From: a virus
Lineage: Duplodnaviria > Caudoviricetes
Reading direction: 5' to 3' (one strand)
IMG/VR virus record: IMGVR_UViG_3300038315_001939
Location: 1 to 47,919 of that record
DNA: 47,919 nt
A program made the position numbers and the translations under genes. Shown here one piece after another: positions 7,828 through 47,641 of this stretch. Below the pieces are notes generated by a model. It did no database searches. It saw only the letters and a program-made list of their open reading frames with translations, and had not been told where the DNA came from. The number at the start of each line of letters is the position of its first letter. Positions within the stretch are counted from its first letter, which is position 1.

Positions 7828-8148
7828 TCAGGCTAAGACGCGCGCAAGTGCTTGCGCGAGTTCTAGGATTTCGGGTGAGGGGAGGCTGGCCTCTGGTGGC
7901 GTCTCTAACTTCTTTGGTTCTTTAGGCGGTTCTGCCCATGCGGGTTGGTTAATTTCGACGTAATGAGCATGGATGTCGCAGGCGGAAACTTGACCACCGG
8001 TAGCTTTGTTTATCAGGTGGATGAGCTTTGGCGACCCAAACATTTGCCCGCAGCAAATGCGCGAAATTTGGGAATCTGTCGAGCCGATAGAGGCGGCAAA
8101 ATCCCGTTGTCTGATTTTATTTGCTTTTAGCCAACTTTTTAGCAGCAT
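7828..8148 (-). CDS. Cro-like HTH regulator (first gene of the leftward operon)
   Basis: QRDFAASIGSTDSQISRI HTH; ATGGQVS..D motif shared with 9082-9297; AAGGAG RBS. Confidence 0.8.
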   Translation of the reverse strand: MLLKSWLKANKIRQRDFAASIGSTDSQISRICCGQMFGSPKLIHLINKATGGQVSACDIHAHYVEINQPAWAEPPKEPKKLETPPEASLPSPEILELAQALARVLA

Positions 8149-8214: not shown

Positions 8215-8250
8215 CACCAAAACAGTTAAATCGGTGTAACTGTTTTGGTG
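8215..8250. repeat. 14-bp perfect inverted repeat (operator pair and/or cI terminator)
   Basis: CACCAAAACAGTTA-N8-TAACTGTTTTGGTG directly after the cI stop. Confidence 0.65.
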
Positions 8251-8985
8251 TTATAGCTTTCTGGCGTACCAGACTATTCGACCGATGATGTTGATTTCAT
8301 CGACGGTTCGTTCGTAAGTGGAGTGATGGGCATTGTCCGAAACAACCCGTACGGTTGGCGGTTCTGAATTGGGTATGACTTCGATCCGTTTCACAACGAC
8401 GCCGAAGCCGTCCCATAGGGCGAACACACCCGGAGGGCTTGGTTTTTTATCGGCTGTGTTGACGATTACACGATCTCCGCTTCTGAGCGTTGGTTCCATG
8501 CTGTCGCCCTGAACTTCAATTACCCTGGCGTTGCGCGGTGCTACGCGCAGCTCTGTGATCATGTATTCTTTGGGGATGAGCCATTCTGCCTTGATTGCAT
8601 CCGTGGAAATGTGATGCCCGTTACCGTTGGGTTTGAATGCGACAAGAGGTTCAGCTCCACCACCCATACCGGCGCGGATATCTATTTCGGGGATTTTTGG
8701 CGCATCGGTTGCTGTGTCTGCGTATTTCTCACGGTCCGGATCGGGGCCGAGCGGTTGAAGTAGTTTCTCCCGCGAGATCGTCTCCATCGTGGGGCGGTCG
8801 TAAAGTGCATTTGTTGGAATGTTCAATGCCTCTGCGATTTTCATAACCCAATCAATGGTGAGTTTGCGTTGGCCCAGTTCCAACCGGCTGATTTGCTGGT
8901 TGGTGGTTCCCAGTTTTCGGGCGAGTTCAGATTGCGACATTCCTGCCGCTTCTCTGGCCTCTTTTATGCGGTTTGCGTTTTTCAT
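8251..8985 (-). CDS. cI: CI-like repressor (XRE HTH plus S24 autopeptidase)
   Basis: SQSELARKLGTTNQQISRLE HTH; GDSMEP catalytic Ser and VKRI catalytic Lys. Confidence 0.93.
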   Translation of the reverse strand: MKNANRIKEAREAAGMSQSELARKLGTTNQQISRLELGQRKLTIDWVMKIAEALNIPTNALYDRPTMETISREKLLQPLGPDPDREKYADTATDAPKIPEIDIRAGMGGGAEPLVAFKPNGNGHHISTDAIKAEWLIPKEYMITELRVAPRNARVIEVQGDSMEPTLRSGDRVIVNTADKKPSPPGVFALWDGFGVVVKRIEVIPNSEPPTVRVVSDNAHHSTYERTVDEINIIGRIVWYARKL

Positions 8986-8991
8986 GGGCTA

Positions 8992-9079
8992 ATTGTCTCT
9001 ATTCTGGTGGGGATGTCTATCGCCATGTTGGTGATTTTTGGTGTTGACGCTACACCAAAATGGAGATAGCGTTCTGGTG
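8992..9079. promoter_or_regulatory. OR-like switch: PR (+), PRM-like (-) and CACCA-N3-TGGTG operators
   Basis: TTGACG(9044)-17-TAGCGT(9067) on +; TAGACA(9019)-16-GACAAT(8997) on -; operator-like sites at 8997-9009, 9021-9033 and 9053-9065. Confidence 0.7.
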
Positions 9080-9081
9080 TC

Positions 9082-9297
9082 ATGAAATTAACGCTCTGGA
9101 TTCAGCAGCACTGCGGCGGAAGTCGTAAAGAGTTTGCGAAGATGATCGGCTCATCGCCGCAGGCAATTTACAGATATGAGGATGGCGATCGCGTCCCGGC
9201 CCCGAAAGTGATGCACAAAATTGTCGAGGCAACCGGGGGTGATGTCACCCCTAATGATTTCTTCAGTTTGAACGATGATCAGACTGAGGCGGCGTAA
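9082..9297 (+). CDS. cro: Cro-like HTH regulator
   Basis: Divergent from cI; RKEFAKMIGSSPQAIYRYE..R.P...ATGG.V..NDF. Confidence 0.88.
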   Translation: MKLTLWIQQHCGGSRKEFAKMIGSSPQAIYRYEDGDRVPAPKVMHKIVEATGGDVTPNDFFSLNDDQTEAA

Positions 9298-9457
9298 ATT
9301 CGCCATTGTCGCCTTTTTTCCAACCCGCACGTTTCAGAACTGTTTCCGCGTGTTCAATGTCTTTGGGGTTGCTGCTTTTTTGCAGGGTTTCAAGGGCTTC
9401 GCGGAAATCGGATGTAGCACCTCTCAGGGCGTCAATTCTTTCTGATTTCGTGGTCAT
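9263..9457 (-). CDS. Small antisense hypothetical protein (64 aa)
   Basis: GGAG RBS 8 nt before ATG 9457; natural-looking helical sequence; 3' end overlaps cro. Confidence 0.5.
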   Translation of the reverse strand: MTTKSERIDALRGATSDFREALETLQKSSNPKDIEHAETVLKRAGWKKGDNGEFTPPQSDHRSN

Positions 9458-9540
9458 GTTTGTTGCTCCGTTGCTGTCCTCATCCTTATGCGGCACCCCC
9501 GCATGGGCGGCAACTCCCAAAACGTAAGGGTTTGATAGCC

Positions 9541-9924
9541 ATGCCATACGCCCGATCCGAAAACAGTTTTGCCGATGCCACCACCAAGGCCATGCATGCC
9601 GTGGGTGGTGAAGTCTTGGCAGGGGCCTGCGGGGTTTCATATTCCCGGCTGCGTCAATGCGCCAACCCGATGCGCGGCGATGTGATTAACTTGCAAGCCG
9701 CGGTTGATGCCGATATCGCCGCGGCGCGTGCCGGGGCAGGGTGCCCGCATTTTGAAAGTTATGCCGCCCAGCTTCACAAGGCCGGGGTTCTTGGCGGGTT
9801 TGACGCCGAACGTGCCGGCATGCGCGCACTGATCCGATCGATTGCGGCCTTGCTTCGCGAAGCGGCTGATCGGATGACGGCAGCGCTTGAACCGCAACCA
9901 CGTCTTTACGGGGTAGCAGCATGA
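9541..9924 (+). CDS. Probable CII-like regulator
   Basis: Position after cro; HTH-like GEVLAGACGVSYSRLRQCANP. Confidence 0.55.
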   Translation: MPYARSENSFADATTKAMHAVGGEVLAGACGVSYSRLRQCANPMRGDVINLQAAVDADIAAARAGAGCPHFESYAAQLHKAGVLGGFDAERAGMRALIRSIAALLREAADRMTAALEPQPRLYGVAA

Positions 9925-10406
9925 CCTATCTTTCTGATCGCCATCGGCGCGAGTTGGCTATCCCGGCTGTTTTAATGCAGCGGGTTGCCAGCGTGATCTT
10001 GGAGCCGGGGGTTAAAGAAGGCCATGCCGAGGTTCTGGAATGCCTTGCGCGGGCCTGCGATGAGCCGTTTTCGGGATTGCCCAAGGCCAAGGCCGATAAA
10101 CTGCGCAACCGCGTGATGGCCCTGCAGGGTGAGTTGCTTCGTGAATATGAAGATCGCCCCGTGATCACGGTTTTCCTGATGGTGGTGATCTGGCTGCGTG
10201 ACGCGCTTGACGATGGCACGCTGACCCTGATCGAAGGGTCTGACTTTGATCAGGCGGCAACCTGCCTGATCGACCAGATATCGGTATATGATGATCTGGT
10301 TGATGGTGCCTATAACTCGGGCCGCAAGAACGCAATCAAGCTCGCGCAAAAGCTCGAAATGCGCGGTTATTACCAAGGGCGCGCTGCCCGGAAGGTGGCG
10401 GCATGA
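9921..10406 (+). CDS. Hypothetical phage protein
   Basis: ATGA-coupled on both sides; ends VAA*. Confidence 0.75.
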   Translation: MTYLSDRHRRELAIPAVLMQRVASVILEPGVKEGHAEVLECLARACDEPFSGLPKAKADKLRNRVMALQGELLREYEDRPVITVFLMVVIWLRDALDDGTLTLIEGSDFDQAATCLIDQISVYDDLVDGAYNSGRKNAIKLAQKLEMRGYYQGRAARKVAA

Positions 10407-11338
10407 TTGGGTCAGCGTTTCGCCTTAAAGTACGCGCGGATGCCGTGATTGCCTCTCCGGTCAAGTCCTTCCGTAAGAAGTTTGAGGCCATCAGGAACTA
10501 CTGTTTGCCTGTCGCAAAGCAAAGTTGCGGCATAGATAATCTCTTCATTAGTAACGACTTGGTCGATGTAACTCTCGCGGAAATAGTCGAAAAGTTCATC
10601 TACAATTGCTTGGATTTCAGCAACCGTCCCCAGATGTATGAATATTTCATGGGTAGTCAGCTTCTGATCGTCACTATTAACGGTGCGCACTCTGGCTTCA
10701 TGGTACTGTACCTTTCGAGACAGGGCGATGATCAGGTCTATGATCCTTTCTTTCCCCTCTCCAGGGTGTCTGGCGACTTCCCTTATGCGACGCAAAGAGT
10801 TCTCTCTTGGGGACATGAGTCCGCTGGGTCGCAGATTAGTGTCGTACCCGAGCTTTGCGGATCGCGCCAGCGAACTGAAAATCTTCCAATGCTGCTCTGC
10901 GTAAGTGGAGATCTCGGAGAGTGCGCTAGGCAGAGCAACAATTGCTACACGTTGTGCGGCAACCCGTTCCGCCATGTTTGCGTTCTCATGAGCTCGGGTC
11001 TGTTCTCTTATTGCCCAAAAAGTTATGCTGGCGGCTGTGAGGGCGAGCATCGCGCCGATAAGGGTTTGCCAATCATGGAGGAATTGGATAACCCCGCTAT
11101 AATCTGCTGTTTGGGAAAGCTCGGGGTAAGCTCCGAAAAGCAGCATTCCCACAAGTGCCGTCAGTCCGCCAAGAAATGCGGAAATGACTGCCGTAAGGGC
11201 GACGAAAGCCAGCCGATGCTCGGTCTTGCTGTTGGTATCGCCAAGGTTCATGTTGAGCGTTCCCCCATTGTCGAAAGGTGTGATTTTGCTGCCTTTCGGG
11301 CGGACAAGCAACTGTCTGTGTGCGAGGTCGCAGCATGA
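10403..11338 (+). other. Sense-strand bridge ORF 1 over antisense cargo (translation plausible, protein function doubtful)
   Basis: Starts in ATGA 10403-10406, ends EVAA* in ATGA 11335-11338; 311 codons open. Confidence 0.5.
10412..11251 (-). CDS. Cargo membrane protein 1 (two N-terminal TM segments, W[EQ]TL family)
   Basis: GGGGGA RBS before ATG 11251; DWQTLIGAMLALTAASITFWAIREQTRA; promoter-like TTGCTT(11311)-17-CAAAAT(11288). Confidence 0.75.
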   Translation of the reverse strand: MNLGDTNSKTEHRLAFVALTAVISAFLGGLTALVGMLLFGAYPELSQTADYSGVIQFLHDWQTLIGAMLALTAASITFWAIREQTRAHENANMAERVAAQRVAIVALPSALSEISTYAEQHWKIFSSLARSAKLGYDTNLRPSGLMSPRENSLRRIREVARHPGEGKERIIDLIIALSRKVQYHEARVRTVNSDDQKLTTHEIFIHLGTVAEIQAIVDELFDYFRESYIDQVVTNEEIIYAATLLCDRQTVVPDGLKLLTEGLDRRGNHGIRAYFKAKR

Positions 11339-12492
11339 CCCATCGCACCCCCATCCCTCAATCAGCCATCGACGATGTAAACGCACGAACCGATCTGGTC
11401 GAGTTGGTCGATAATTCCGGTGTCAAGCTGGTCAAGTCCGGCCGGGAATGGATGGGGCTTTGTCCGTTTCATTCCGAACGCACGCCATCCTTCACGGTGC
11501 GCCCGGAAAAAGGCTTCGCGCACTGTTTCGGCTGTGGCGCGCATGAAAAGCCGATCGGCTATCAGATGCGCGTCTATGGCCAGACGTTTATCGAGGCGCT
11601 CAAGGATCTGGCGTGGAAGGCTGGTGTTGACCTGACCGAATATGTCGGGCGGGCCGAAAAGCCTGCGCACAAGCCAAAGCCCAAGATTGCCAGCCGCGCC
11701 GATGAAAAGGATCGCGTGTCGGAAACCGAAAAGCGCCGAAAGCGCGGCCATAAGCTTTGGCAGCGTGGCCTTCCGGTCATTGATACCGAGGCCGAGGAAT
11801 ATCTTGCGAACTATCGCGGGATTGATCGTGACTTGTTCCTGCATAGCGGGGTGCATCGGTTCGTGCCTGATTATGAATTCTGGTATCGCGCCCGTGATGC
11901 CAAGAAATCCGAGGTGATCTGGACCGGACCGGCGTTGCTCAGCGTCATGCAATATATCGATGATCGCTTTGCCGCCTGTCATGTGACCTGCATTGACCTT
12001 AATGAGGAAAAGGGGCGTCTCAAGCTTAGTGCCCCGGATAGCGGGCGGGAACTCAACACCAAGCGCGTGATGGGCGATCCGTCCAAGGCGGCGATCCGCC
12101 TTGGCAAGCCTGCGTTTAAGATGGTCGGCGGGGAGGGGTTGGAAACGACCTATTCCGGCATGATGGTTTCCGGGCTTTCCGGCTGGTGTTCCTATTCGCT
12201 TGATAACCTTGTTGGTGCCGGTCTGATGGACGCCAAGGGGGAGTATCATCCGCTTGATGGCCGAAAAAAGCTGCCGACGGTGGTGCCTGATATGGCCCGC
12301 CCAGGCATGATCTGGCCGCGCGAATGCCATGAGCGGATCTTTCTGGGGGATGGCGATACCAAAGACATCCATATGCTCAAGGCCAAGCTCGAACGGGGGT
12401 GCCGCCGTGCTGCCGTCGAGGGCCGTATCGGGCGCATCGCCATGTCGAGGCCAGGTACCGATTTCAACTCGATGATTTTGGGGGCGGCGTGA
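11335..12492 (+). CDS. CHC2 zinc-finger DNA primase-like protein (Toprim-like C-terminus)
   Basis: GLCPFHSERTPSF...HCFGCG; GEGLET and GDGD motifs. Confidence 0.88.
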   Translation: MTHRTPIPQSAIDDVNARTDLVELVDNSGVKLVKSGREWMGLCPFHSERTPSFTVRPEKGFAHCFGCGAHEKPIGYQMRVYGQTFIEALKDLAWKAGVDLTEYVGRAEKPAHKPKPKIASRADEKDRVSETEKRRKRGHKLWQRGLPVIDTEAEEYLANYRGIDRDLFLHSGVHRFVPDYEFWYRARDAKKSEVIWTGPALLSVMQYIDDRFAACHVTCIDLNEEKGRLKLSAPDSGRELNTKRVMGDPSKAAIRLGKPAFKMVGGEGLETTYSGMMVSGLSGWCSYSLDNLVGAGLMDAKGEYHPLDGRKKLPTVVPDMARPGMIWPRECHERIFLGDGDTKDIHMLKAKLERGCRRAAVEGRIGRIAMSRPGTDFNSMILGAA

Positions 12493-13160
12493 TGTTAAAG
12501 GAATACGCTGTCACCGCTGCAATAGTTCCGCAGCCTCCTCACAGCGCGGTCCAGAGACCTGATCTGGCCAAAGTAAGTGATCGGATATTTGATCAGGTAG
12601 TTTTGCGGAGTGAAATTGTTGTCGCGCTCCTTTTTCACTGCGTACCGTTTGCGGATGTCAATTGTGTTCAAGAGTGCTTTGGTGCATTCGGACAATATGG
12701 CACTCAACTCTGGCGTCACGATGTGAGGGTTAGAGAGGATTTCGGTCAGTTTGTCTTCAATTCTGCGAATGTTCATGATGTCAGTGTGCAGCAATTCTTT
12801 ACCTTCAAGGTGGAGGCTCGACAGGCTGTTGGAGATTTCACTGATTTCGGCCTGATACTTGGACTTAAACGCCAAGCTGTTGCTCTCTTCTGTGGCGCGC
12901 TGTTGGTAAGTCGCCGCTCTGTATGCGAGCCAACCGCCTCCGAGACCAAGCAGGCCAGCCAGCAGCGTTTCCCCGGTCCAATCAACAAAGCTATTTCGGG
13001 CAATAACGCCGATTGTGACACCTCCGAACAGGGTGCCGATCAAGGGGATTGCTTCATTTATTTTTGGTATGTTCATCACGGTACCCTTTCAAAGCGACTG
13101 ATCGTTTTAGTTTCGACCGCAGGTTCGGCAACGTCAAGCTATCTCAAAGGGGCGGCGTGA
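12489..13160 (+). other. Sense-strand bridge ORF 2 over antisense cargo
   Basis: Starts in GTGATG 12489-12494 overlapping the primase stop; ends KGAA* in GTGATG 13157-13162 overlapping the methylase start. Confidence 0.5.
12495..13079 (-). CDS. Cargo membrane protein 2 (W[EQ]TL family)
   Basis: DWTGETLLAGLLGLGGGWLAYRAATYQQRA; AAGGG RBS; promoter-like TTGACG(13137)-17-GAAACT(13114). Confidence 0.75.
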   Translation of the reverse strand: MMNIPKINEAIPLIGTLFGGVTIGVIARNSFVDWTGETLLAGLLGLGGGWLAYRAATYQQRATEESNSLAFKSKYQAEISEISNSLSSLHLEGKELLHTDIMNIRRIEDKLTEILSNPHIVTPELSAILSECTKALLNTIDIRKRYAVKKERDNNFTPQNYLIKYPITYFGQIRSLDRAVRRLRNYCSGDSVFL

Positions 13161-13837
13161 TGGCGACAAAACGCAAGGTCAACAAGGGCGCGATGATGCT
13201 CGGCGGGCGATCTGGCGAGGTCGATTGGGAGCGCCCGGATGAAAATCAGTTTTACCCGACGCCGCCCGAAGCGACCGAGGCGCTTATTCGCGCCATGCCG
13301 CACCTTGCGGGGCAGAAAATCTGGGAATGTGCCTGTGGTGATGGTCGATTGGCCCGGGTGCTTGAGCATCACGGGTGCGAGGTCATCGGCACGGATCTGA
13401 TTGATCGCGGCTATGGCCAAGGCGGGGTCAATTTTTTGGCCACACACCGTCGCCGCGCTTCGAAGGCCATCACCAACCCGCCTTTCACGTTGGCACAGGC
13501 ATTCATCGAACATGCCATGCGTCTGCATCTGGAAGAGGTCTGGATGCTGCTGAAAACCGACTATTACCAAGCTGCCAGTCGCACCGGTTTCAAGCAGCGC
13601 ATTCGCCCGAAATACAAGCTCGAACTGTCATGGCGCATCGACAGCCTTGGCCTTGGTAGCCCTGCGCTCAATTGCGCATGGTTCGGATTCGAGCGTGATT
13701 TCACGGGCCGCACGGTCTGGGACACACTGACCAAGCCCAAGATGGGAAATCTTGACTTGTTTGTGCCTGCGCGCGTGACGTCGACGGATCGGTCGACGCT
13801 GATTGCGTCAGTGGCCAGTCAGGGGAGTTTGCTTTGA
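13160..13837 (+). CDS. Phage amino-methyltransferase (m6A/m4C type)
   Basis: FYPTP, WECACGDG (SAM-binding) and ITNPPF catalytic motif. Confidence 0.85.
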   Translation: MATKRKVNKGAMMLGGRSGEVDWERPDENQFYPTPPEATEALIRAMPHLAGQKIWECACGDGRLARVLEHHGCEVIGTDLIDRGYGQGGVNFLATHRRRASKAITNPPFTLAQAFIEHAMRLHLEEVWMLLKTDYYQAASRTGFKQRIRPKYKLELSWRIDSLGLGSPALNCAWFGFERDFTGRTVWDTLTKPKMGNLDLFVPARVTSTDRSTLIASVASQGSLL

Positions 13838-13839
13838 TG

Positions 13840-14598
13840 TTAGTCCTCAATGCCACAGCGCAAAAGATTCTCAGAAATCTGTCGTTCGATTTCCGTTCTT
13901 GCGCCGGCGGCTCTTGTGCCTCCGTCTCTAATCAAAGTTCGGTACCGTCGGTACCGTATGTATTGGGCGCCACTCGGCTCGCCACCTGGGTCGTTGGTAT
14001 CAGCTATTCTCAGAACAATCAGGTTTTGCAGCCGGGAATATGTTTCGTAACTCAGGGCCGTCGTTTTGTGTTCGATGCATATGCTTTCAATGTGATTTAT
14101 CCGAGTTTCGAAAGCGGATCTCGCGCGGTCAAGGGCTCTGTTGAGTTTTTCTTCCTGCAAAAGCCCTGCTTTCACAGAGCTTTGCAATTCGTGGAGATGT
14201 TGAAGGGTTTGTTCCGACCATCCGCAAAAATTATCGACAGCATCCAATGCGAGTTGCAGGGGGGCATTAAGCTCGTCAGCGCGGTGCATCCTAGCTTGAC
14301 GCAAAGCGGCGGCAGCAGTTTCTCGGGTAGCGCGCACTTGATAAGCCCCAGAGAAGACCACTATAAAACCGGCCATCAGGCTCAGCAGTCCGGTTGCCAA
14401 TGTTTCCCATTCCAAGTTGTTCAATTGACGGCAAACGGGAAAATCAAGTGGGATTGGGGTGCACATGTCCTGAATTTGTATCCCCAACATAGCAAGCATG
14501 GCGATAAGTCCAAACATCAAGAATATGCATGCAAACACAAGTTTGGGAGATGCGCCAAGGCGCGTTCGGAGGGACTTTGTATTGTGCTTTTGTCTCAT
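13840..14598 (-). CDS. Cargo membrane protein 3 (W[EQ]TL family)
   Basis: LVFACIFLMFGLIAMLAMLG and LEWETLATGLLSLMAGFIVVFSGAYQVRA; start 14598 or 14628; promoter-like TTGACG(14668)-18-CAAGAT(14644). Confidence 0.75.
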   Translation of the reverse strand: MRQKHNTKSLRTRLGASPKLVFACIFLMFGLIAMLAMLGIQIQDMCTPIPLDFPVCRQLNNLEWETLATGLLSLMAGFIVVFSGAYQVRATRETAAAALRQARMHRADELNAPLQLALDAVDNFCGWSEQTLQHLHELQSSVKAGLLQEEKLNRALDRARSAFETRINHIESICIEHKTTALSYETYSRLQNLIVLRIADTNDPGGEPSGAQYIRYRRYRTLIRDGGTRAAGARTEIERQISENLLRCGIED

Positions 14599-14808
14599 CT
14601 GGCGGGCGAGCTTTTCTTCAAGTTGCAAAAAGATCTCAATCTTGCGCCGAAGGTTGCGCTTTCGTCAAAGAAAATTGCCCAATGTGCGAGAAAGTGCGAA
14701 ATTTCGTCACCAACTGACACAACGGGTTTTGAATGCCGTGCAAGTCTCCCTCCATCACAACAACGATGGAAGGGCATGGACATGCGCAAACGGAAATCCT
14801 CAACTTTA

Positions 14809-14837
14809 TTGACTGCTCGGCATCGTCGGCGTATGGT
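14809..14837 (+). promoter_or_regulatory. Sigma70-type promoter of the antisense-RNA module
   Basis: TTGACT(14809)-17-TATGGT(14832). Confidence 0.7.
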
Positions 14838-14952
14838 TTGGCCTATCAACGGGAAAAATCCGTTGTGGGGGAGTAAGGACCCTCTCAAGACGGCAAGCCG
14901 TCACGTAAGTTGCGGCTATTTTTGTGCCCGGAATCCGGGTGCATCTCGCTTA

Positions 14953-15034
14953 TGGCGGGAGGGCGGTGAATACAAGACCCGAAAGGGGAATAAACCCGCC
15001 TGCCTCTTGACAGGTTCTTACCCTCCCGCCACCA
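14953..15034 (+). ncRNA. P4 CI / P1 C4 / IsrK-like antisense RNA
   Basis: Closing stem TGGCGGGAGG/CCTCCCGCCA followed by CCA; CCC-GAAA-GGG hairpin; exposed CCTCTTGAC and TTCTTAC complementary to flanking GTAAG(G/A)A and TCAAGA sites. Confidence 0.8.
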
Positions 15035-15093
15035 GCGCGGTCGTAAGAAGCCGTTCTGGTGGTGTTGTGAAACGCCGTCAAGAGGGCTTTGAC

Positions 15094-15582
15094 ATGACCG
15101 ATGATATTGACGGGCGGATTCCGTCCGAAACATTCCTAATCACCCCAGATAATGCCCCGGTGCGCGGTCTTTCGCGTGCTGAGCGGGCCGCGATCAACCG
15201 TCGCGCAACCGATGTTGCGACGATGCTGTTTCCCTATGTCCGCGATTACATGACGCGCAGCGCGATGGACCGTTTGCGCGCATCCGACAAGCTCAAGATT
15301 TCCGCACTCCCCATGCCGCCCGACATAGGCTTGATGATTGCCCGGTATCGGACCTTTGGCGTCGATGGTTTTGATCCGCGTGATCCGACAGGACATCGGC
15401 GGGTGTGTTCGGTTGGTGCGGCGATGACATTGGTCGAGGCGGTGCCAACACTTCGCGAAATTGCCGATGGTCTGAGCCCGGAAACGGTTTTGAGCGAGGA
15501 CGGCCGTGATTGGCTGCGAGACCGGATCGCGACGATACTTTCGGGTCTCCTGTCCATCGAAATTGACGCGGGGTTGCTATGA
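15094..15582 (+). CDS. Protein controlled by the antisense RNA (kil/icd/antirepressor position; function unknown)
   Basis: GAGGG RBS overlapped by the GTCAAGAGG target; ATG 15094. Confidence 0.65.
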   Translation: MTDDIDGRIPSETFLITPDNAPVRGLSRAERAAINRRATDVATMLFPYVRDYMTRSAMDRLRASDKLKISALPMPPDIGLMIARYRTFGVDGFDPRDPTGHRRVCSVGAAMTLVEAVPTLREIADGLSPETVLSEDGRDWLRDRIATILSGLLSIEIDAGLL

Positions 15583-15794
15583 AAAACTCCATTGTCATCC
15601 CGTCTTGTGACCATCGCGGCTGCAACCGCGCAGCGACGCACATCATGGTTAATCATGGTCGTTGGTGCCGGGGCCATATCCCCCCGGAATTCTTCCGATA
15701 CAAGCGTATCGCCGCAGGTGAAGAGCGCGAAATAGACCCGATTGGCCCGTTGCCCGCCGATCAAAGAAAACCCAAACAGGAAAGGTTGTTCTGA
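15579..15794 (+). CDS. Small Cys/His-rich phage protein
   Basis: ATGA overlap; CDHRGC...WCRGH; ends QERLF. Confidence 0.65.
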   Translation: MKNSIVIPSCDHRGCNRAATHIMVNHGRWCRGHIPPEFFRYKRIAAGEEREIDPIGPLPADQRKPKQERLF

Positions 15795-15795
15795 A

Positions 15796-17283
15796 ATGTC
15801 AGGAAGTGAAGTTAGTGAAGCCGGTCTGGAAGCCGCGAAGCGGCTTATCAACGGTGCGGAGATCGTCGGTATGGATGGCGTCAAGGTCAATCCGAACGAC
15901 GTGTTCTATGATGTAAATGCGATGAATGAATATTTCGCGCTGGTTGCAATTGGTGGTCGCGCGATGATCATCGAAGAAAAGTTCAAGCGGCGGGCGAATT
16001 GCCCGATCCCGGACCGCGTGAACTTTATGAACCTTGATACTCTCCATACGATTTTGGCGAACAAACAAAGCTATATCGCGGCGGATAAAAAGGCCCCGTG
16101 GTCAAGGCTTTGGTTGCAGGACCCGAAGCGTCGGGAATATTCGGGGATCAGCTTTGTGCCGGGTGGTGCCGCACCTGACGGGTATTATAACCTTTGGCGT
16201 GGTTTCAGCATGGCGGCGGATTACGAGGGTTGCGAAAAAAAATGCTCGATCTTTCTTGATCATGTGCGGACCAATGTCGCAGGCGGGAACGAGGCGCATT
16301 TCCGTTTCATCATGGGGTGGGCGGCGCATATGTTCCAGAAGCCGACAGAACGGGCCGGGGTGGCCGTTGTTCTGCGGGGCGGGCAGGGTAGCGGCAAGAC
16401 CCTGTTCGGGCAGACGTTGGGCCGGTTGATCGAGGATCATTATGCGCTTGTCGATGATCCGCGCTATGTGGTCGGGAACTTTAACGCGCACCTGGCGTCA
16501 ACCTTGTTGTTGCAGGCCGATGAAGGTTTCTGGGCGGGGGATAAACACGCCGAGGGGCGGCTTAAGGGCCTTGTCACATCCGACTATCATATGATCGAGC
16601 GCAAGGGCGTTGATGCCTTTCGGGTCAAGAACTATGTCCATTTGCTGGTGACTTCCAACAATGATTGGGTCGTGCCCGCGGGGCATGATGAACGCCGGTT
16701 TGCGGTGTTTGATGTGGCGAATGCCAGCCAACAAAACCGGCAATATTTTGGCGAAATGATCGCGCAGCTTGAAAATGGCGGGTACGCGGCGTTGCTTGGT
16801 TATTTGCTGCTGTTTGATCTTGATAGCGTCAACATCTGGGATATCCCTAAAACGGCGGCGTTGGCCGATCAGAAACTATCCAGCCTGTCGGTCGAGGAAA
16901 GCTGGTGGCTGGTATGCCTCCGACGCGGGCATGTGACATTCCAGGGTGACGGGGTACAGCACTGGATGCCCTTTCTGCCAAAGGCGGATGTGTACGCCAA
17001 CTATCTGCAATGGGTCACGCAGCGCGGGCGCAAATTCCCGATGACCGAAGAACAGTTTGGCAGGCGACTGTTGCGCATATGCCCGGGGATTACGGCGGGA
17101 CGACGAAGGTTTGACCATGGTCAGCGCAAGTATGTCTATCAATTCCCGACCCTTGATGAAAGTCGACGGCTGTTTGCCGAGATGATCCGGACGGACATTG
17201 ATTGGGACGAAGGGGATCTTGACGATGGGGATCAGGCGCAATCTGGCTATGGGGCTTCCGAATTTTCGGCCAGTGATTTTTGA
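15796..17283 (+). CDS. SF3 / D5-like primase-associated helicase (DUF5906-like)
   Basis: YNLWRGF; Walker A GGQGSGKT; Walker B ADE; TSN motif C; ERRF arginine finger. Confidence 0.9.
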   Translation: MSGSEVSEAGLEAAKRLINGAEIVGMDGVKVNPNDVFYDVNAMNEYFALVAIGGRAMIIEEKFKRRANCPIPDRVNFMNLDTLHTILANKQSYIAADKKAPWSRLWLQDPKRREYSGISFVPGGAAPDGYYNLWRGFSMAADYEGCEKKCSIFLDHVRTNVAGGNEAHFRFIMGWAAHMFQKPTERAGVAVVLRGGQGSGKTLFGQTLGRLIEDHYALVDDPRYVVGNFNAHLASTLLLQADEGFWAGDKHAEGRLKGLVTSDYHMIERKGVDAFRVKNYVHLLVTSNNDWVVPAGHDERRFAVFDVANASQQNRQYFGEMIAQLENGGYAALLGYLLLFDLDSVNIWDIPKTAALADQKLSSLSVEESWWLVCLRRGHVTFQGDGVQHWMPFLPKADVYANYLQWVTQRGRKFPMTEEQFGRRLLRICPGITAGRRRFDHGQRKYVYQFPTLDESRRLFAEMIRTDIDWDEGDLDDGDQAQSGYGASEFSASDF

Positions 17284-17563: not shown

Positions 17564-18193
17564 ATGGATCAGGAAAAGCTGTTAAAACCCATCGGCATCG
17601 AACGCCTTGTGGATTGGGCGTTTGGTCAGCAAAAGGTCGCGCTTATGGATGGGCGGGACCGGGGCATATTCCCGGTGTTGGCGTTGCTCAGCAAGACCAC
17701 GGTCAGTTACGGGGAACGCATCGGCGGCGGCGGGGCTTCGGGGGCGGGGTATGATGTTCATCCGGACGCGGTGATTGTTTTGGATGCGTGGCGCGAGGTT
17801 ATGACCTATAGCGCCGATGGGGCTTGTTTGGTCCGGTCTTATGGCGAAAGCGGCTTTAGCCCTGATTGGGTGGCGGATGGGGAATTGCGCTTTATCGCCG
17901 AAATTGATCCGCAAACCGGTATGCCAAAGCAGGCCCGCGATCACAACCGCCATCTTGTTCGCGAAAGCTGCCGGGTCAAGCGGGTGGGGAAATCCCCCGA
18001 TGTGGTTCGGGTCGCGCGGTCGGAATACCGGGTTTGGTGGCATGCGCTGCACTTGATGCAGGATTTTGTCGCCGATTATTCGGCACGTCAGGGCGGGTTG
18101 GTGATGTGGCGGCTGACATCGGAAATGCCACCGAAAGAGCCGTGGTTGCTTGACGGTGCCGCGACCGGTTTGTTTTTTGAAAAAGCGTCTTGA
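17564..18193 (+). CDS. Probable late-gene regulator / antiterminator (Q position)
   Basis: Last early gene, immediately followed by a promoter-terminator pair; function from position only. Confidence 0.55.
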   Translation: MDQEKLLKPIGIERLVDWAFGQQKVALMDGRDRGIFPVLALLSKTTVSYGERIGGGGASGAGYDVHPDAVIVLDAWREVMTYSADGACLVRSYGESGFSPDWVADGELRFIAEIDPQTGMPKQARDHNRHLVRESCRVKRVGKSPDVVRVARSEYRVWWHALHLMQDFVADYSARQGGLVMWRLTSEMPPKEPWLLDGAATGLFFEKAS

Positions 18194-18782: not shown

Positions 18783-19868
18783 CTATTTTTCGCAACCAAG
18801 AGATGATGGATCGATTAATGCTGTTGGCACGAGATTTGTAGTGCTATTCGGGAACCGCTTTGCTCTGGGTTGTTTCGAGCTTTTGTTGTGAATTTCTTTG
18901 TAAATTTCCTCGATTTTTCTTTTCAAGTCTTGGCTCCTGATGACGTCCCTCAAAGTCTCGACTTGCTGTTCAAATGGTCCGCTCAGTTCTACTTGCAGAT
19001 TGCGGATTTCTTTCTGTAAAGGCTGTACTTTTTGTTTGGCATCATACGATATTTTTATCTGATCGCAGACACTTGACTGTGTGTTGCCGCCTTCCACTTG
19101 GCTATTTGACTTGGTTAGCACGACAAGTTTTTGTTTGACCAGTTGTCGGATGTTTTTCTGACAAAACAGACTGTCATATGTTTCGTCATTTGGTGTGCCA
19201 TACGATTGTAAGACAAGGTTGATTGTGGAACCTAGTGAATGAAACTTCCTAGTGTCGACGTCAGGTAGAAGTTCCTTGTAACTGTTCATATCAATGTAAG
19301 AGTTGATCGTCATTTCCACATAAGCGCAAACATATGGTGGTTTTGATGATCTGCTTTGCGGGTAGTCATCAACAGTTCGCGGAAAAGCGAGACCCAGCTC
19401 CTTTTGGATATTTGGTGCCAGAATTGTTGCGGGCCATTGTACTGTCTGGGACTTGTCGGCGTCCCGATACAATGTCCCGGCTTGCGACGCAGTATAGGTT
19501 TCACGCCCACTTTCTTGATCGAGAGTTCGGTAAAAGATTTGAAACGCAGCAAGGTTTGGCTTGATCGATACGGGGACCTTGCCTGAGTTTGAAAGCTTTA
19601 GGTGCACAAAGAAAGATTCATTGGTCGTGTCATAATAAGCGTTACCGGATTGGAAGTTGGCTTTTGGTGTGAAGAAGTCGATGGCTTCAAACGCACTTCG
19701 TTCTTTGTCGATATCAGAGACGATATTCAGTCCGTAAACAGCGACACCCAACGCCAAGAAGGCGATAATATTACCAAGGTGTCGATCCCAAAAAGGTGGG
19801 TTTGCCTGTGTTACGTTAGGTTGCTCTGCCGGTGCGGGTGGCTCATCGATCGGGGTGTTTTCAGTCAT
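18783..19868 (-). CDS. AT-rich cargo (moron) membrane-anchored protein with C-terminal coiled coil
   Basis: GGAG RBS before ATG 19868; TM segment IIAFLALGVAVYGLNIV; antisense to the late operon. Confidence 0.75.
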   Translation of the reverse strand: MTENTPIDEPPAPAEQPNVTQANPPFWDRHLGNIIAFLALGVAVYGLNIVSDIDKERSAFEAIDFFTPKANFQSGNAYYDTTNESFFVHLKLSNSGKVPVSIKPNLAAFQIFYRTLDQESGRETYTASQAGTLYRDADKSQTVQWPATILAPNIQKELGLAFPRTVDDYPQSRSSKPPYVCAYVEMTINSYIDMNSYKELLPDVDTRKFHSLGSTINLVLQSYGTPNDETYDSLFCQKNIRQLVKQKLVVLTKSNSQVEGGNTQSSVCDQIKISYDAKQKVQPLQKEIRNLQVELSGPFEQQVETLRDVIRSQDLKRKIEEIYKEIHNKSSKQPRAKRFPNSTTNLVPTALIDPSSLGCEK

Positions 19869-31281: not shown

Positions 31282-32986
31282 GAATTTCGTCGTTAGCATG
31301 ATCCTGAATGCGCGCGAAACGGTCTCAGGACCGATGCGCCGGGTTCAATCCATGCTGACCGGCATTCGTGCCCGGGCTTCTGCGGTGACGCGAAGCCTTG
31401 GCTTCCACAAGATCACCGATGGTTTCCGACGCCTTGGTAGTTCGTTCGCTGGTCTGGGGCGTCATATCTCGGGCGTGGGTGTCGGGCTTCTGGGGTTGGC
31501 CGGGATAGGGTTTGGCGGCGGGGTTTTGGCGTGGTTGCATAGTGGGGCGGGCGAGGCCGATGTGCTTGCCAAGTTTGGCCGTACCGTAGGTCTATCTGCG
31601 GAGCGGCTTCAACAGTGGCAGCATGCGGCAAACCAAGCTGCTGGAATGACAAATGAAGAGCTTCGCAAGAGTTTTCGCGATCTGAGTAAAAACGTCGGTG
31701 ATGCAGCCAACGGTATTGGTCGTGCAAGGCCGATATTTGAGGCGCTGGGTATTCCTCTGCGAGACAGTAGTGGAGAGATGCGGACGCTGAACGAGATTCT
31801 GCCGGAGTTGCAAGCCGCATTTCAAAAGATTGAAGACCCGTCATTAAAAACATCCGCAGCAATGAAGCTGTTCGGTGAAAGCGGGTCCAAAATGTCGCTG
31901 CTTTTACAGCAGCCGCAAGAGGAAATGGACCGGCTGTTTGGCGATATGGAACGCCTCGGTATGATCAGCAATGAAGCCGCTGGCGATACCGAGGCCTATA
32001 ACGATGCGCTGGACAGTTGGGGTAAGTCATTTACCGGTATTCGTAACGGTTTGATGGCCTACTTCATGCCGATGATGACGCCGCTGATCAAGAAAATGAC
32101 CGAGTTCATGGTGTCTATGCGACCCGAAGTGGTGGAGCGCCTTGGTTCCGCGATTTCGGGCGCTGCGAATACCATGATGGGGTTGTTCACGGTTGCGCAG
32201 GATGGCACAACCCCAGCCGGGCAGGCCCTTAAATCGTTTATGTCGACGATCGAAAACCTTATTTCCTATGGCGGCAAGATCATTGATTTCCTCGGCGGTT
32301 GGCAAAACGCTGCGTTGGCGCTGGGGGGCATTCTTGCGGGGCCGTTTATTGCGTCGCTGTTGTCTGTCGGTACGGCGTTTGCTCAGTTGGGTTGGGTGCT
32401 GGCGTCAAACCCGATCGTTCTGGCGGCGGGGCTTATCGCCGGGGCAGTCTATACGATCTATGACAATTGGGATGGGATCGTCGGTTATTTCACGGGCAAG
32501 ATTGATGCTGTCAGGTCGGCATTCAAAACCGGGTTCATCGACGGTGTGATGGCCTATATGGCTGAATTTAACCCGTTCGCGATCCTGTATGACGGCTTTA
32601 CCGGGCTGGTCAAGTATCTGACCGACTTCGACCTTGCGGCCATCATCTCGGAAAAGGTGCAGGCAATGATGTCTGTACTGCCTGATTGGGTGGTTGAAAA
32701 GCTTGGGGTGGGCAAGGCCGAACCGCTGCAATCTGCACCAACGCCAGTGCAGTCCGCCGATCCGCCCGCCGTATCCATGGAACAGTCGGCGCGACAGGTG
32801 GAGCAAGCCAAGGCGCAGGCCTATCAGGGAGCGAGGGCGCCCGATCCGGTCGAGGGCAAGATCGTCGTCGAAATCGTGGGCGATGGTGCTGCCAATGCCC
32901 GCGTTCGGCAGTCAAAGTCGACTGGTATTGGCCTTGAAACCAGCCTGCGGACGGGGCCAAGTCTTGCGGGCATGGGGGCAGGTTAG
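31274..32986 (+). CDS. Tape measure protein
   Basis: Ala/Gly-rich helical, hydrophobic segment, IYDNWDGI; follows the chaperones. Confidence 0.9.
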   Translation: MAKNFVVSMILNARETVSGPMRRVQSMLTGIRARASAVTRSLGFHKITDGFRRLGSSFAGLGRHISGVGVGLLGLAGIGFGGGVLAWLHSGAGEADVLAKFGRTVGLSAERLQQWQHAANQAAGMTNEELRKSFRDLSKNVGDAANGIGRARPIFEALGIPLRDSSGEMRTLNEILPELQAAFQKIEDPSLKTSAAMKLFGESGSKMSLLLQQPQEEMDRLFGDMERLGMISNEAAGDTEAYNDALDSWGKSFTGIRNGLMAYFMPMMTPLIKKMTEFMVSMRPEVVERLGSAISGAANTMMGLFTVAQDGTTPAGQALKSFMSTIENLISYGGKIIDFLGGWQNAALALGGILAGPFIASLLSVGTAFAQLGWVLASNPIVLAAGLIAGAVYTIYDNWDGIVGYFTGKIDAVRSAFKTGFIDGVMAYMAEFNPFAILYDGFTGLVKYLTDFDLAAIISEKVQAMMSVLPDWVVEKLGVGKAEPLQSAPTPVQSADPPAVSMEQSARQVEQAKAQAYQGARAPDPVEGKIVVEIVGDGAANARVRQSKSTGIGLETSLRTGPSLAGMGAG

Positions 32987-32997
32987 GGTGGTGTGGT

Positions 32998-33849
32998 ATG
33001 TTGTCAATGACGTATGGCGACAATATCGACGATGTTGTCGCCAATTTGACCCAGCTTGAAAAGGTTCAAGTTCCGTTCGCGCTGTCGAAGGCTGTTAACC
33101 GGGTGACGTTTGAGGCGCGCGATGTTGTGCTGTCGCAAATGGACCGCCGGTTCACGATCCGCGAAAAGTCGTTAAAGGCGTCGGGTGGTGGTCGCCGTGC
33201 ATTGTTCGTGAATGCCAGCAACAAAAAGCAGGCTGTTATACAGGCTGAAATTGGGACACCGTTCTGGTTTATGGAAGATCAGGAATTTGGCGGGTCCCGT
33301 CGTGGGAAGTCTGGCGATGGTGCGTGGATGCCCGGGCTGGGTGCCCGTGCGCGCAAATCCAAAGAGGGCAAGGTTACATCCCGATACAGAAAAGCGAAGG
33401 TTCGCAAGATTCTGGCGTCGACTGGTGCCTACCCGAAAGGTCGTCGTTCAAAGAAAAACTCGAAAGCGTTCGCAAAGCAGCAGCCGTTCATAGCAACCAT
33501 GAAAAGCGGCAAGCGTGGGGTGTTTATCCGCCAGAAACGTAACAGCCGCCAACCGCTTTCCCTGCTTTGGACGATATCCGATTCCGTTCGGATCGCCCCG
33601 CGATGGCATTTTCGGGACATGATCGAGGGTATGAGTGAAAAGCGCCTGCGGGCGTACTTCATTGCGGACCTGCAGGAAGCATTGCGTACGTCCCGAAAGG
33701 GGCCAAAGCAAAGCCAGTATCTTGAGCATCTGATCCGAAGCGAAAAGACGCCGCCAATGCCAAGTTTCGCGGGGCTTGGTGCGGGGTCGCTTTCGGGAAA
33801 TACGCTTGATCAGTTAAGCCAGGTATCGCGCGGTTTACCGGGGATTTGA
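32998..33849 (+). CDS. Basic virion morphogenesis protein (gpZ-like)
   Basis: QVPFALSKAVNR N-terminus; very Lys/Arg-rich. Confidence 0.6.
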   Translation: MLSMTYGDNIDDVVANLTQLEKVQVPFALSKAVNRVTFEARDVVLSQMDRRFTIREKSLKASGGGRRALFVNASNKKQAVIQAEIGTPFWFMEDQEFGGSRRGKSGDGAWMPGLGARARKSKEGKVTSRYRKAKVRKILASTGAYPKGRRSKKNSKAFAKQQPFIATMKSGKRGVFIRQKRNSRQPLSLLWTISDSVRIAPRWHFRDMIEGMSEKRLRAYFIADLQEALRTSRKGPKQSQYLEHLIRSEKTPPMPSFAGLGAGSLSGNTLDQLSQVSRGLPGI

Positions 33850-44814: not shown

Positions 44815-45140
44815 TCCGTGAATATGTTCCTATATAAAGAACGTATATTGAAGGTCTGGCGTAATCACTTGTATCCTGTGCATCCCGAATGGAGGTAAAG
44901 GATATGAGTGATTGCAGGTTCCTGGCATGGTTTGATATTTTTAGGTGTTGCAGTCGGTTTCAACGTGTGTCTGCGGAGTTTTCTGGTGAAAACTGGTAGT
45001 CTAGGCTGCGGTGATATTATATTTCAGAGGCAAACAATGCCGCCATAATTCTAGTTATATTTGGCATAGATGACAGGGAATTATTGAGAGGATATAGTAA
45101 GAGGGGAAGTGTATTCTTTCTCTGTTTGATTGGTGTGTTT

Positions 45141-45974
45141 ATGGCAAAATTTCCCAACATAATTGTAGCCTCACCTTCTCGACGCTATCCTGCAGTTGGT
45201 GCCTGCATTTATTGTGGAACTCGTGCCGGAAAACTGAACGACGAACACATTATCCCTTTTGCAATTGGCGGCAACGCCCTTGTTTTACCGGCAGCTAGCT
45301 GCCGCAAGTGCGAAATTGATAATAACAAGATTGAGGGCCCAATGCACCGTCGGCAACTTCAACCACTAAGGGTTGTTCTGAACTTGCCGACTAGACGGCC
45401 CAGTAGTAGATCGGGTCAGCTACCTGTGGGGTTATCTAAATTCACGACATTTAATCCTGGTGAGACCGCTGTTTCACTTGGTGAGGCTTCAATCCTATCT
45501 GAAAATTTTCCGCTGTTGTTCTGTGGTCTCCTTCTCGACAAACCCGGCATTCTGTTAAACTTACCACTGGGAACCCCACTTAAATGGGATTCCATCATCA
45601 GACTCTGTTACGACCCTTCGCGGAGTCCATTTGTTGGTGAAGCTAATGCGGTTAGGTTAGGAGAATTTAATCCATATTTGTCTGCGCAATATCTAGCGCG
45701 AATAGCTTATGCATACGCTGTAGCAGAAAAAGGGTTAACTATGTTCCAACCCTTGGTTCTTGACCTAATCAAGGGAAAAACAAAATATTTCCGTCATTGG
45801 GTTGGGGGGGATTTGGAAATCCCGGATGCAGCCCCGGATAGGCTACATTCCATCTCACATGGATGGGAAATTATTAATGGTGTTCGCTATTTGGTAGTTA
45901 AACTTAGACTGTTCAGCTTCTTAGCTACGCCAGTTTACTATGTTGTTGTTGGTCAAGATCTTGGAGAAGAGTAA
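45141..45974 (+). CDS. AT-rich cargo protein with N-terminal HNH nuclease domain
   Basis: CIYCG...DEHIIPFAIGG...SCRKCE.DNN. Confidence 0.8.
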   Translation: MAKFPNIIVASPSRRYPAVGACIYCGTRAGKLNDEHIIPFAIGGNALVLPAASCRKCEIDNNKIEGPMHRRQLQPLRVVLNLPTRRPSSRSGQLPVGLSKFTTFNPGETAVSLGEASILSENFPLLFCGLLLDKPGILLNLPLGTPLKWDSIIRLCYDPSRSPFVGEANAVRLGEFNPYLSAQYLARIAYAYAVAEKGLTMFQPLVLDLIKGKTKYFRHWVGGDLEIPDAAPDRLHSISHGWEIINGVRYLVVKLRLFSFLATPVYYVVVGQDLGEE

Positions 45975-46649: not shown

Positions 46650-47321
46650 TTATCTGTTCAACAGTATACTGGCATATGCCTGACGTTCGCTACGCAGCTC
46701 TTCATTCGCAGCAATCAAGCTGTTTGCAATATTCTCAATTGCTTCCAGGGTTTCGGCGGGGGAAGTAGTAGTGGTGTATTTTTGTTCACCAAGCGGCTTT
46801 GTTTTCTCGACGATTTCCTTTGCGGCATCTCGCAGCGATCTAGGAAAATCGGTATTGGCCGCGATGGTCTGTGCTTGATTGCTGTGAGAGACAGCCCCTT
46901 TGACGTCAACTCTGATGTTGTTCCAGTTGTTCTCGACTTTGCCGCTTTCGGCGTAAGGAGTTGCTAAGAGTGTCTTGCGGGCTTTTCCAATATGTTCCTG
47001 TGCGTCTTTGATGGTTCTGTCAGTAACGCGCAAAAGCCTGTCCACAGGGTCGAGTTCGCGATTAACGGCGTCCTCGCGATTTGCCTGAATATGTTCGCGG
47101 GTCGACAAAATAACAAATATACCGCCCATGAGCCCCAATCCGCCCGCCAAAACCGTCTCCCATTGAAATTTGACCCACATGGAGCAGAACATATTGCCAA
47201 TTGGTCTACATGATTGATCGATAATCAGTCCAGCGGCGGAGAAAGCGGCGCTCGCAATGAAGGCGGCGGGTAAAGGCCACCACTTTTTGAGTTTTTGAGT
47301 GTACAATTTCACTATGGTCAA
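46650..47321 (-). CDS. Membrane protein 4 (W[EQ]TL family), outside the att
   Basis: FQWETVLAGGLGLMGGIFVILSTREHIQA; TTGA overlap with the higA stop. Confidence 0.75.
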   Translation of the reverse strand: MTIVKLYTQKLKKWWPLPAAFIASAAFSAAGLIIDQSCRPIGNMFCSMWVKFQWETVLAGGLGLMGGIFVILSTREHIQANREDAVNRELDPVDRLLRVTDRTIKDAQEHIGKARKTLLATPYAESGKVENNWNNIRVDVKGAVSHSNQAQTIAANTDFPRSLRDAAKEIVEKTKPLGEQKYTTTTSPAETLEAIENIANSLIAANEELRSERQAYASILLNR

Positions 47322-47641
47322 CTCGCCGCCCGCTCCGGCGGATACACAGTTTGCGGTTGCCAGTCGGCTTCGGCCTGTTCGCCGTCCCAGGCATCAACCG
47401 ATGCCTGAAGGTTCACCCAGAACAGTGTGGTGGTGCCAAGCGTTTTGGCGATGCGCGCGGCCAGCGGGGCGTCAATACGGGCATGGCCGTTGATGATGCG
47501 GCTCAGGTGTTTTTCGCTGATTTCGACATCGTCGGCGAAATGCTTTTGCAGGATTTTGCGCGGGACAAGGTAATGTTCGCGCAGGATCACGCCCGGATGG
47601 GTCGGGCGGCGATTGCGGCGAAGCGGTCGGGGTGCGTTCAT
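47318..47641 (-). CDS. higA: HigA family antitoxin
   Basis: PTHPGVILREHYL, XRE HTH, FWVNLQ. Confidence 0.92.
   Translation of the reverse strand: MNAPRPLRRNRRPTHPGVILREHYLVPRKILQKHFADDVEISEKHLSRIINGHARIDAPLAARIAKTLGTTTLFWVNLQASVDAWDGEQAEADWQPQTVYPPERAAS

Follow-up and report, generated by a model that had tools for sequence, protein, structure and literature searches.

Reverse-strand genes within an operon are known from noncontiguous operons (PMC11087260, PMC11364771). In the tha/ith operon of the S. aureus phage 80alpha, an antisense accessory gene with its own promoter lies in a phage operon and is involved in switching between lysogeny and lysis; the protein of the overlapping gene is the effector, and translation, polarity and Rho go unmentioned in the part of PMC11087260 drawn upon. 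MIRU elements are inserts at start codons whose own open reading frame (ORF) is coupled by a −4 overlap to the gene behind; harm is minimised, and the ORF serves purely to deliver ribosomes (PMC12548453). The P4 ORF eta is coupled to the gene upstream, and its translation prevents termination (Forti et al. 1999, as summarised in PMC10111431). Finally, antisense ORFs described in bioRxiv 10.1101/724807 lie in frame −1, avoid TTA, CTA and TCA opposite real genes and show no selection on a protein. Features of all four systems recur in the locus considered here, which belongs to a virus record of 47,919 nucleotides (IMGVR_UViG_3300038315_001939, Caudoviricetes), analysed over its entire 47.9 kb and referred to as the window. 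In its rightward early operon three long forward ORFs, here called bridges, each run over a reverse gene for a membrane protein, here called cargo, and the bridges appear to be kept open for the act of translation rather than for a product.

The window encodes an integrase, a CI/Cro switch, a primase, methyltransferases, a helicase, a terminase, and contractile-tail and lysis genes. Its nearest relatives are Thalassospira records and IMG/VR proviruses, and two marine metagenome contigs carry identical copies of the sequence, so that an accident of assembly is excluded. The bridges and their cargo are:

10403..11338, forward: bridge 1, 311 aa, −4 coupled at both ends; no family match
10412..11251, reverse: cargo 1, a 279-aa membrane protein with two N-terminal hydrophobic segments, the most distant member of a polymorphic family
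12489..13160, forward: bridge 2, 223 aa; one other homologue only among 266 candidates
12495..13076, reverse: cargo 2, a 193-aa membrane protein of the polymorphic family
13834..15582, forward: bridge 3, 582 aa, which crosses cargo 3 and 166 spacer codons with an RNA module and ends as the gene at 15094-15582
13840..14598, reverse: cargo 3, a 252-aa membrane protein of the polymorphic family, with Thalassospira homologues

The three plus-strand ORFs that an earlier note on this DNA had placed over minus-strand ORFs at 10412-11251, 12495-13079 and 13840-14598 are all present and share codon register with them. Each begins on the upstream stop codon as described (ATGA, GTGATG, TTGATG), in every case by a −4 overlap. 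The claimed avoidance of TTA, CTA and TCA, the codons that would close the forward frame, is borne out by a count of zero in the 728 cargo codons (722 internal); the other two plus frames over each cargo contain 7-20 stops. Such a zero count has a probability of ~1e-5 at the phage-wide rate (210 in 13,548 codons), and of ~4e-10 when 21.6 such codons are expected, a figure derived from how often each cargo gene has A at third positions, after calibration with 27 genes of the window. With the early core genes as the most cautious reference (12 in 1,844 codons), P for the window cargo alone is 0.009. The caution that antisense frames are often open by chance in GC-rich genes does not apply here, as the three cargo genes are not GC-rich (GC 0.50-0.51) and have A at 22-30% of the third positions of four-fold boxes.

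Related prophages, which the note had proposed to compare, hold different cargo at these slots under open, coupled forward frames. Across 12 loci, 40 of the 41 reverse cargo genes contain no TTA, CTA or TCA in 7,533 codons, against 173 expected. With one gene taken from each of 22 groups (the analysts' own grouping) the count is 0 against 93 expected (P 2e-12 at the core-gene rate), and for the seven cargo genes with a GC of 0.48 or less it is 0 against 32. These counts leave aside same-record copies (L006, L013, L014, L022, L023, L026, L027, L029, L030-L036 and L106), the HicB cassette of L009, which is like that of L008, the degraded L019, an out-of-register reverse ORF of L015 (12059-12439) and small hicA genes. 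One remnant row with wrong bounds was also dropped, 12 of 13 being retained. The non-cargo spacer codons of 30 bridges (2,537, a few uncounted small genes included) hold no stop where 114 were expected.

In 11 of the 12 distinct phages coupled forward ORFs follow one another without a break between the second early gene and the helicase, the gaps at their junctions being −8 to +5; in these 11, a chain so tight has no space in which unbridged cargo could have escaped notice. Some phages have empty slots, the primase being joined straight to the methyltransferase in L003, L007, L008 and L009. Elsewhere they contain genes for DUF4145, SWIM zinc-finger and HicB proteins, ParE with a helix-turn-helix (HTH) partner, a Gp49/HI1420 addiction pair and many variants of the membrane family. 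Single bridges of 752, 789 and 850 codons span three, four and two genes, respectively, and L015 has two full cassettes in tandem with a separate junction each. In L001 a partial second copy (8285-8434) of a small core gene (window 15579-15794) begins the 850-codon bridge, which suggests that the cassette grew by duplication of junction DNA. An insert of ~310 aa in the L009 primase was rejected as cargo; it is in-frame, carries LAGLIDADG, lies inside the zinc-finger region of that primase (gene at L009 6915-9011) and is most likely an intein.

Natural controls are provided by genes outside the operon, two of which lie in the window:

18783..19868, reverse: moron beyond the end of the operon, unbridged, with 15 in-register stops
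46650..47321, reverse: membrane-family paralog at the prophage end, unbridged, with three in-register stops (46965, 47211 and 47271)

The antisense frame of the moron is thus interrupted, as had been stated; for the paralog, the two stops listed earlier are right, and the count of two missed a third. More widely, 26 of 33 family ORFs from 30 loci have a closed antisense frame, with 215 stops in 5,923 codons. The other seven are open; one of them is a truncated repeat, and all are located in operon slots of phages or satellites or in a fresh remnant. The observed-to-expected ratio is 1.59 for family members outside operons (90 against 56.7 expected; 9 genes) and 0.34 for cargo islands without lytic genes (14 against 41.6 expected; 12 genes), some of which keep the cargo order of L002 or L015. 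In L019, whose primase is truncated, codon 35 of the L001 slot-2 bridge has become a stop. Since the frames are closed outside operons and decay in remnants, the constraint on them depends on an intact lytic operon. Small chromosomal islands consisting only of former phage cargo (HicB, membrane family), with the lytic genes deleted, are found at recurring sites in L156 and L159-L163, and look like domestication of prophage cargo. Beside the window paralog, and in the same orientation, a HigBA-like toxin-antitoxin pair occupies the right end of the record (47318-47919, reverse).

The reverse ORFs are, on the combined evidence of N-terminal hydrophobic segments, homologues, family alignment and purifying selection, to be regarded as real genes. 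In 21 homologous cargo pairs the median ratio of nonsynonymous to synonymous differences (pN/pS) is 0.41 for the cargo frame, whereas the bridge frame gives 1.11. Purifying selection on an overlapping protein was therefore not found, the latter value matching that of the antisense frame in unbridged family pairs (1.10; 4 pairs); distant bridged HicB pairs give 1.36 in the bridge frame (26 pairs, non-independent), and core genes read antisense give 0.99-2.41. Pfam returned no match for 19 bridge ORFs scanned in relatives or for the three window bridges, and bridge 1 contains 5.8% cysteine. The central idea of the earlier note, an open forward frame selected for translation rather than for its product, came through all the comparative tests run, all of them on sequence. 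It is very probable that selection holds the frame open for the sake of translation, whichever of anti-polarity, coupling, or RNA protection and silencing is the reason.

The bridges are strung between the following genes of the operon:

9921..10406, forward: core early gene upstream of slot 1, without a family match, whose Shine-Dalgarno (SD)/ATGA overlap starts bridge 1
11335..12492, forward: DNA primase (CHC2 zinc finger, DUF7146; family matches)
13160..13837, forward: DNA methyltransferase (phrog_799)
15579..15794, forward: small core gene, conserved in the operon chain of relatives
15796..17283, forward: primase-associated helicase (DUF5906, D5-like; family matches)

The exact junctions had been put forward as the stronger evidence, a view that is not supported by comparison with empty sites, which already hold the SD/stop/start overlap of the upstream gene. 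Empty and filled sites are identical up to the start codon at the left and from the start codon at the right. The exactness of the 5' junction is forced, because an insert at a stop/start overlap inherits the start codon. Similarly, the xAA* ending shared with genuine phage genes is what the SD-spacer-ATGA motif encodes. The evidence is carried by the open frame and by the second, 3' overlap or frame match, not by the 5' junctions. The cassette of bridge 2 is flanked by a 14-nt direct repeat containing the SD, stop and start (regions 12479-12494 and 13147-13162).

The bridge is likely to be a ribosome track, which prevents Rho-dependent termination of the lytic transcript and hands ribosomes to the next replication gene. 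Nascent RNA, with its rut sites, is shielded from Rho by ribosomes, and genes further downstream fall silent when translation is lost (PMC12360218); a Rho gene is present in all three host genomes. In this scheme a cassette would land at a stop/start overlap and inherit its SD and start codon, through which ribosomes would enter, and the right end of the cassette would provide the −35 of the cargo promoter together with a fresh SD and a stop codon that overlaps the start of the next gene. TTA, CTA and TCA can be avoided synonymously in the cargo, which would account for the use of the in-register frame. In the lysogen the rightward promoter would be repressed and the cargo expressed from its own promoter. 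On induction, the ribosome-covered rightward transcript would pass 0.6-3 kb of otherwise untranslated antisense RNA, and may damp the cargo meanwhile. Bridge 3 would in addition, much as P4 eta does, override a module inside it that is under RNA control.

Compared with core genes, the lytic strand over cargo has more C relative to G (P 2e-7) and is richer in YC (P 1e-4). The downstream genes (primase, methyltransferase and others) have SD motifs of their own, of −6 to −7 kcal/mol, and for this reason more than re-initiation appears to be at work. No antiterminator family was matched among the window ORFs scanned, a search that did not extend to nut sites. The reverse morons of lambda and P22 are lysogen-expressed genes inside lytic operons, as the window cargo would be; read-through there occurs via N/Q antitermination and without a bridge, whereas the window phage is bridged. 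At sieB and bor of lambda, and at sieB, sieA and mnt of P22, every forward frame across the gap holds 9-32 stops, and all five genes lack a bridge.

Several observations weigh against a track that guards the transcript from Rho. An AT-rich cargo gene of L024 has eight in-register stops and leaves 238 nt uncovered; a new SD precedes the ATG from which the bridge resumes, its end again overlapping the next gene by −4, and the uncovered gap is C-poor (14% C), which fits Rho, but as an argument made after the fact. In four relatives the late regions contain reverse HTH genes that no bridge covers, the gaps being ~300-750 nt, and prophage L157 has two unbridged family genes beside a bridged one; these genes may have their own promoters or depend on antitermination. 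The shift towards C is modest, C exceeding G in 12 of the 41 cargo stretches, and the lambda and P22 controls amount to five AT-rich genes from two phages only. N proteins are poorly conserved, so that a missing family match does not show antitermination to be absent, and a candidate late regulator (17564-18193) gave only a low-confidence model (8 sequences, mean pLDDT 43).

An apparent second gap in L024 was rejected, being a two-step relay (8217-8327, then 8324-9172). The left operons examined in relatives contain no reverse cargo. A module of a reverse HTH gene and a forward antirepressor-like gene pair is inserted behind the tape-measure gene or near lysis genes in L110 (14317-15275), L113 (15023-16366), L124 (845-1084) and L111 (13206-15105). 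This module is absent at the corresponding place in the window (32986-32998), and twice a small zinc-ribbon-like gene on the reverse strand is overlain in register by a short forward ORF.

Other explanations account for parts of the same evidence. Translational coupling alone, without a role for Rho, would require a bridge if the downstream genes initiated poorly de novo and relied on ribosome hand-over or on unfolding of the start region. Nearly all 3' junctions are indeed −4 or −1 overlaps, the spacing at which coupling is best (PMC12548453), and the L024 bridge, having restarted behind its own SD, nevertheless reaches a −4 overlap with the next gene. A short ORF beside the downstream gene would be enough for this, yet the frames are open over up to 3.2 kb, and the SD motifs of the downstream genes argue against poor initiation; coupling as the whole explanation is considered unlikely. 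It is rather improbable that ribosome cover instead guards lytic mRNA from decay or R-loops, or lets the lytic polymerase beat the cargo promoter, such that the bridge mainly switches the cargo off in lytic growth. The presence of toxin-antitoxin pairs and of defence-like DUF4145 (a weak PD-T7-4 match, E 4e-5) among the cargo is consistent with such a role, as is the reciprocal silencing by antisense transcription known for the 80alpha tha/ith operon (PMC11087260), but silencing alone needs no stop set on the next start codon, and the bridges are equally strict over 22 unrelated cargo types.

That the forward ORFs encode working proteins, for example inhibitors of the cargo in lytic growth, has a precedent in Ith-1, the product of an overlapping antisense gene, which inhibits Tha-1 (PMC11087260). 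The SD sequences of the bridges are strong, so products are probably made, and fast-evolving short active segments would be compatible with the data. Against this stand the unconstrained bridge frame, the lack of Pfam matches in the ORFs scanned and the cysteine content of bridge 1, and also the finding of HicB under bridges of 282, 523, 789 and 1,054 codons, unrelated in length and fusion; working proteins are thus very improbable. The remaining explanation is that codon usage by itself leaves the frames open, and that insertion at stop/start overlaps by itself creates the junctions. Early core genes do use few TTA, CTA and TCA codons (0.65%), often with long in-register antisense ORFs, the 5' junction is indeed inherited, and in the distant phages, which are GC-rich, a HicB gene is expected to hold only 0.6-2.7 such codons. 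With 0 against 173 expected in cargo, 0 against 114 in spacers and the same family closed elsewhere (26 of 33 ORFs), this explanation has practically no chance of being right; the pooled counts refute it, provided that the 22 cargo types do not greatly overstate how independent the loci are. The anti-Rho ribosome track is therefore the preferred reading.

The third bridge contains a module that bears on the proposed likeness to P4:

14809..14837, forward: internal sigma-70-like promoter (TTGACT-17-TATGGT) from a promoter scan, conserved in L001, L008 and L015
14954..15038, forward: sRNA-Xcc1 family RNA (Rfam RF02221, 70.5 bits, cut-off 53), in a strongly folded stretch (z −6.6)
15094..15582, forward: gene of 162 aa, conserved, in the frame of bridge 3, with an SD and ATG of its own and a kil-like position

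Bridge 3 is in frame with the next gene, as had been claimed; it ends as 15094-15582 and crosses the sRNA-Xcc1 match on the way. The analogy with P4 eta turns out to be closer than the earlier note had it, as bridge 3 shares the eta/kil layout of a forward ORF that is coupled upstream, runs over an internal promoter and a structured RNA, and ends in frame as a shorter gene. The RNA matched in the window is sRNA-Xcc1 and not C4, while at the like place L024 has a C4 RNA (RF01695, 46 bits, cut-off 45). sRNA-Xcc1, known from Xanthomonas, has been discussed in the context of virulence (PMC12189769); its place here in a promoter-RNA-gene module, where L024 has C4, hints by analogy that it may be a phage immunity-type RNA.

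The start of the operon has a fourth, looser bridge, out of register and upstream of the region treated in the earlier note:

9047..9075, forward: putative rightward early promoter (TTGACG hexamer, 17 nt, weak −10) just 5' of cro, read from the sequence
9082..9297, forward: Cro-like repressor, the first gene of the rightward operon (PHROG HTH matches)
9263..9457, reverse: small gene, 64 aa, directly behind cro, conserved in 6 of 12 phages; no family match
9306..9527, forward: bridge 0, out of register over the small reverse gene, +8 after the cro stop

Bridge 0 is −4 coupled in L003, L007, L008 and L015 and has a loose junction in the window phage. The putative promoter at 9047..9075 was not picked up by the promoter scan of the window. 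Two Cro-like genes flank cI, at 7828-8148 (reverse) and 9082-9297 (forward), and whole cI/cro types have been exchanged among relatives with the downstream operon retained. Further to the right, an AT-rich gene with an HNH domain (45084-45974, forward) follows the lysis cassette.

A promoter-like sequence had been claimed for each cargo gene. A scan for the sigma-70 consensus found no minus-strand promoter ahead of the three window cargos; invariant −35-like elements are nevertheless present 50-60 nt upstream of cargo starts, TTGAC in 9 of 9 slot-2 cassettes and TTGC in 7 of 7 slot-1 cassettes, and a promoter function is inferred for them. In the window the slot-2 element is:

13128..13146, reverse: conserved −35-like hexamers (TTGAGA/TTGAC) of a putative cargo-2 promoter

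The conserved right-hand socket holds both this TTGAC, on the cargo strand, and the SD of the next gene, and as a result the slot-2 bridges share the ending SSYLKG. The membrane family itself, in which the alignment includes the paralog at 46650, has a conserved N-terminal hydrophobic motif and a hypervariable C-terminus, and its profile matched 24 of 37 genomes of the host genus. Pfam, PHROGs and PADLOC hold no family for the three window cargos, and atlas look-ups of cargo 2 and of the candidate late regulator at 17564-18193 returned unnamed clusters only. Members of the family are candidate exclusion or defence proteins.

Bridges also occur well beyond the relatives of the window phage. A HicB profile run on 69 distant primase loci picked out 15 genes, each of them antisense to the primase and free of TTA, CTA and TCA. 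The training set had included 6 of these, however, several are closely related, and the expectation per gene is no more than 0.6-2.7 such codons. The weight of this screen therefore lies in the coupling and in the run across hicA: the frames stay open for 288-585 nt past the 5' end of HicB, 14 of 15 are coupled upstream and 13 of 15 downstream, and hicA is often in another frame than HicB under the bridge. These counts come from the profile screen; a heuristic screen, which missed two of the three window cargos at its score cut-off, served for leads only. A satellite-like element, L158 (5517-15883), with a P4-type primase, an integrase and a small zinc-finger gene, carries two bridges, of 1,054 and 219 codons, which together cover five reverse genes, the longer spanning four of them, including hicAB. 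In the Paracoccus phage Pben1, carried by P. bengalensis DSM 17099 and inducible with mitomycin (PMC6536676), a 418-codon frame runs from the p24 stop to the methyltransferase start over three reverse genes, again including hicAB; its description remarks merely that the toxin-antitoxin genes face the opposite way (PMC6536676). No information came from the cultured phages Pthi1 and AmM-1, whose primases are related and whose primase operon lacks reverse cargo, or from Pseudomonas phi3, where hicAB sits at the end of the genome.

It is, on balance, somewhat probable that temperate phages and satellites without N-type antitermination rely on a general kind of bridge gene that goes unannotated: frames of kilobase length without protein function, antisense over cargo, which make the stop/start overlaps of essential operons into plug-in sockets for defence and toxin-antitoxin genes that are on in the lysogen and overridden at induction. 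If so, a class of long antisense ORFs would be explained, including some that avoid stops without constraint on a protein, and a stop-free antisense frame would be a sequence marker for lysogen-expressed cargo and for still-active prophages. In the bridges, selection very probably acts on a reading frame for the act of translation, across whole genes of the opposite strand, a constraint that annotation overlooks or gets wrong when the bridge is called as the gene and the cargo dropped. A testable answer is thereby offered to how reverse morons can lie inside essential phage operons in Rho-bearing hosts, and Pben1, being inducible in a deposited strain, would make a single-codon test feasible. 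The erosion of bridges after loss of the lytic genes would provide a clock, and the hypervariable cargo slots hold an uncharacterised polymorphic membrane family.

The ingredients of the design are known (noncontiguous operons, coupling and MIRUs, eta, and stop-avoiding antisense ORFs). Their combination, a product-free frame laid over exchangeable reverse genes, did not appear in the open literature searched, most subscription papers lying outside its scope, and the bridge design is not described in the excerpts of bioRxiv 10.1101/787010 and 10.1101/2020.02.20.958058. For the antisense ORFs of bioRxiv 10.1101/724807, no coupling and no explanation by operon, phage, polarity or Rho is given in the part represented here. 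As in noncontiguous operons, the reverse genes of the window are nested between co-oriented genes of one operon; unlike the tha/ith overlap, the bridge frame extends over the entire insert, with coupling to either neighbour and no constraint on its protein. As with MIRUs, comparison of empty and filled sites shows insertion at a start codon with −4 coupling. MIRUs, however, are short dispersed repeats without a reverse gene, whereas the cassettes measure 0.4-3 kb and are unrelated in sequence save for a short socket, and the bridges of 144-1,054 codons are double-coded with real reverse genes. P4 eta crosses a fixed immunity region without reverse protein-coding genes, in which the RNA is P4 CI; the design in the window, where the RNA belongs to the sRNA-Xcc1 family, covers exchangeable reverse genes at several slots.

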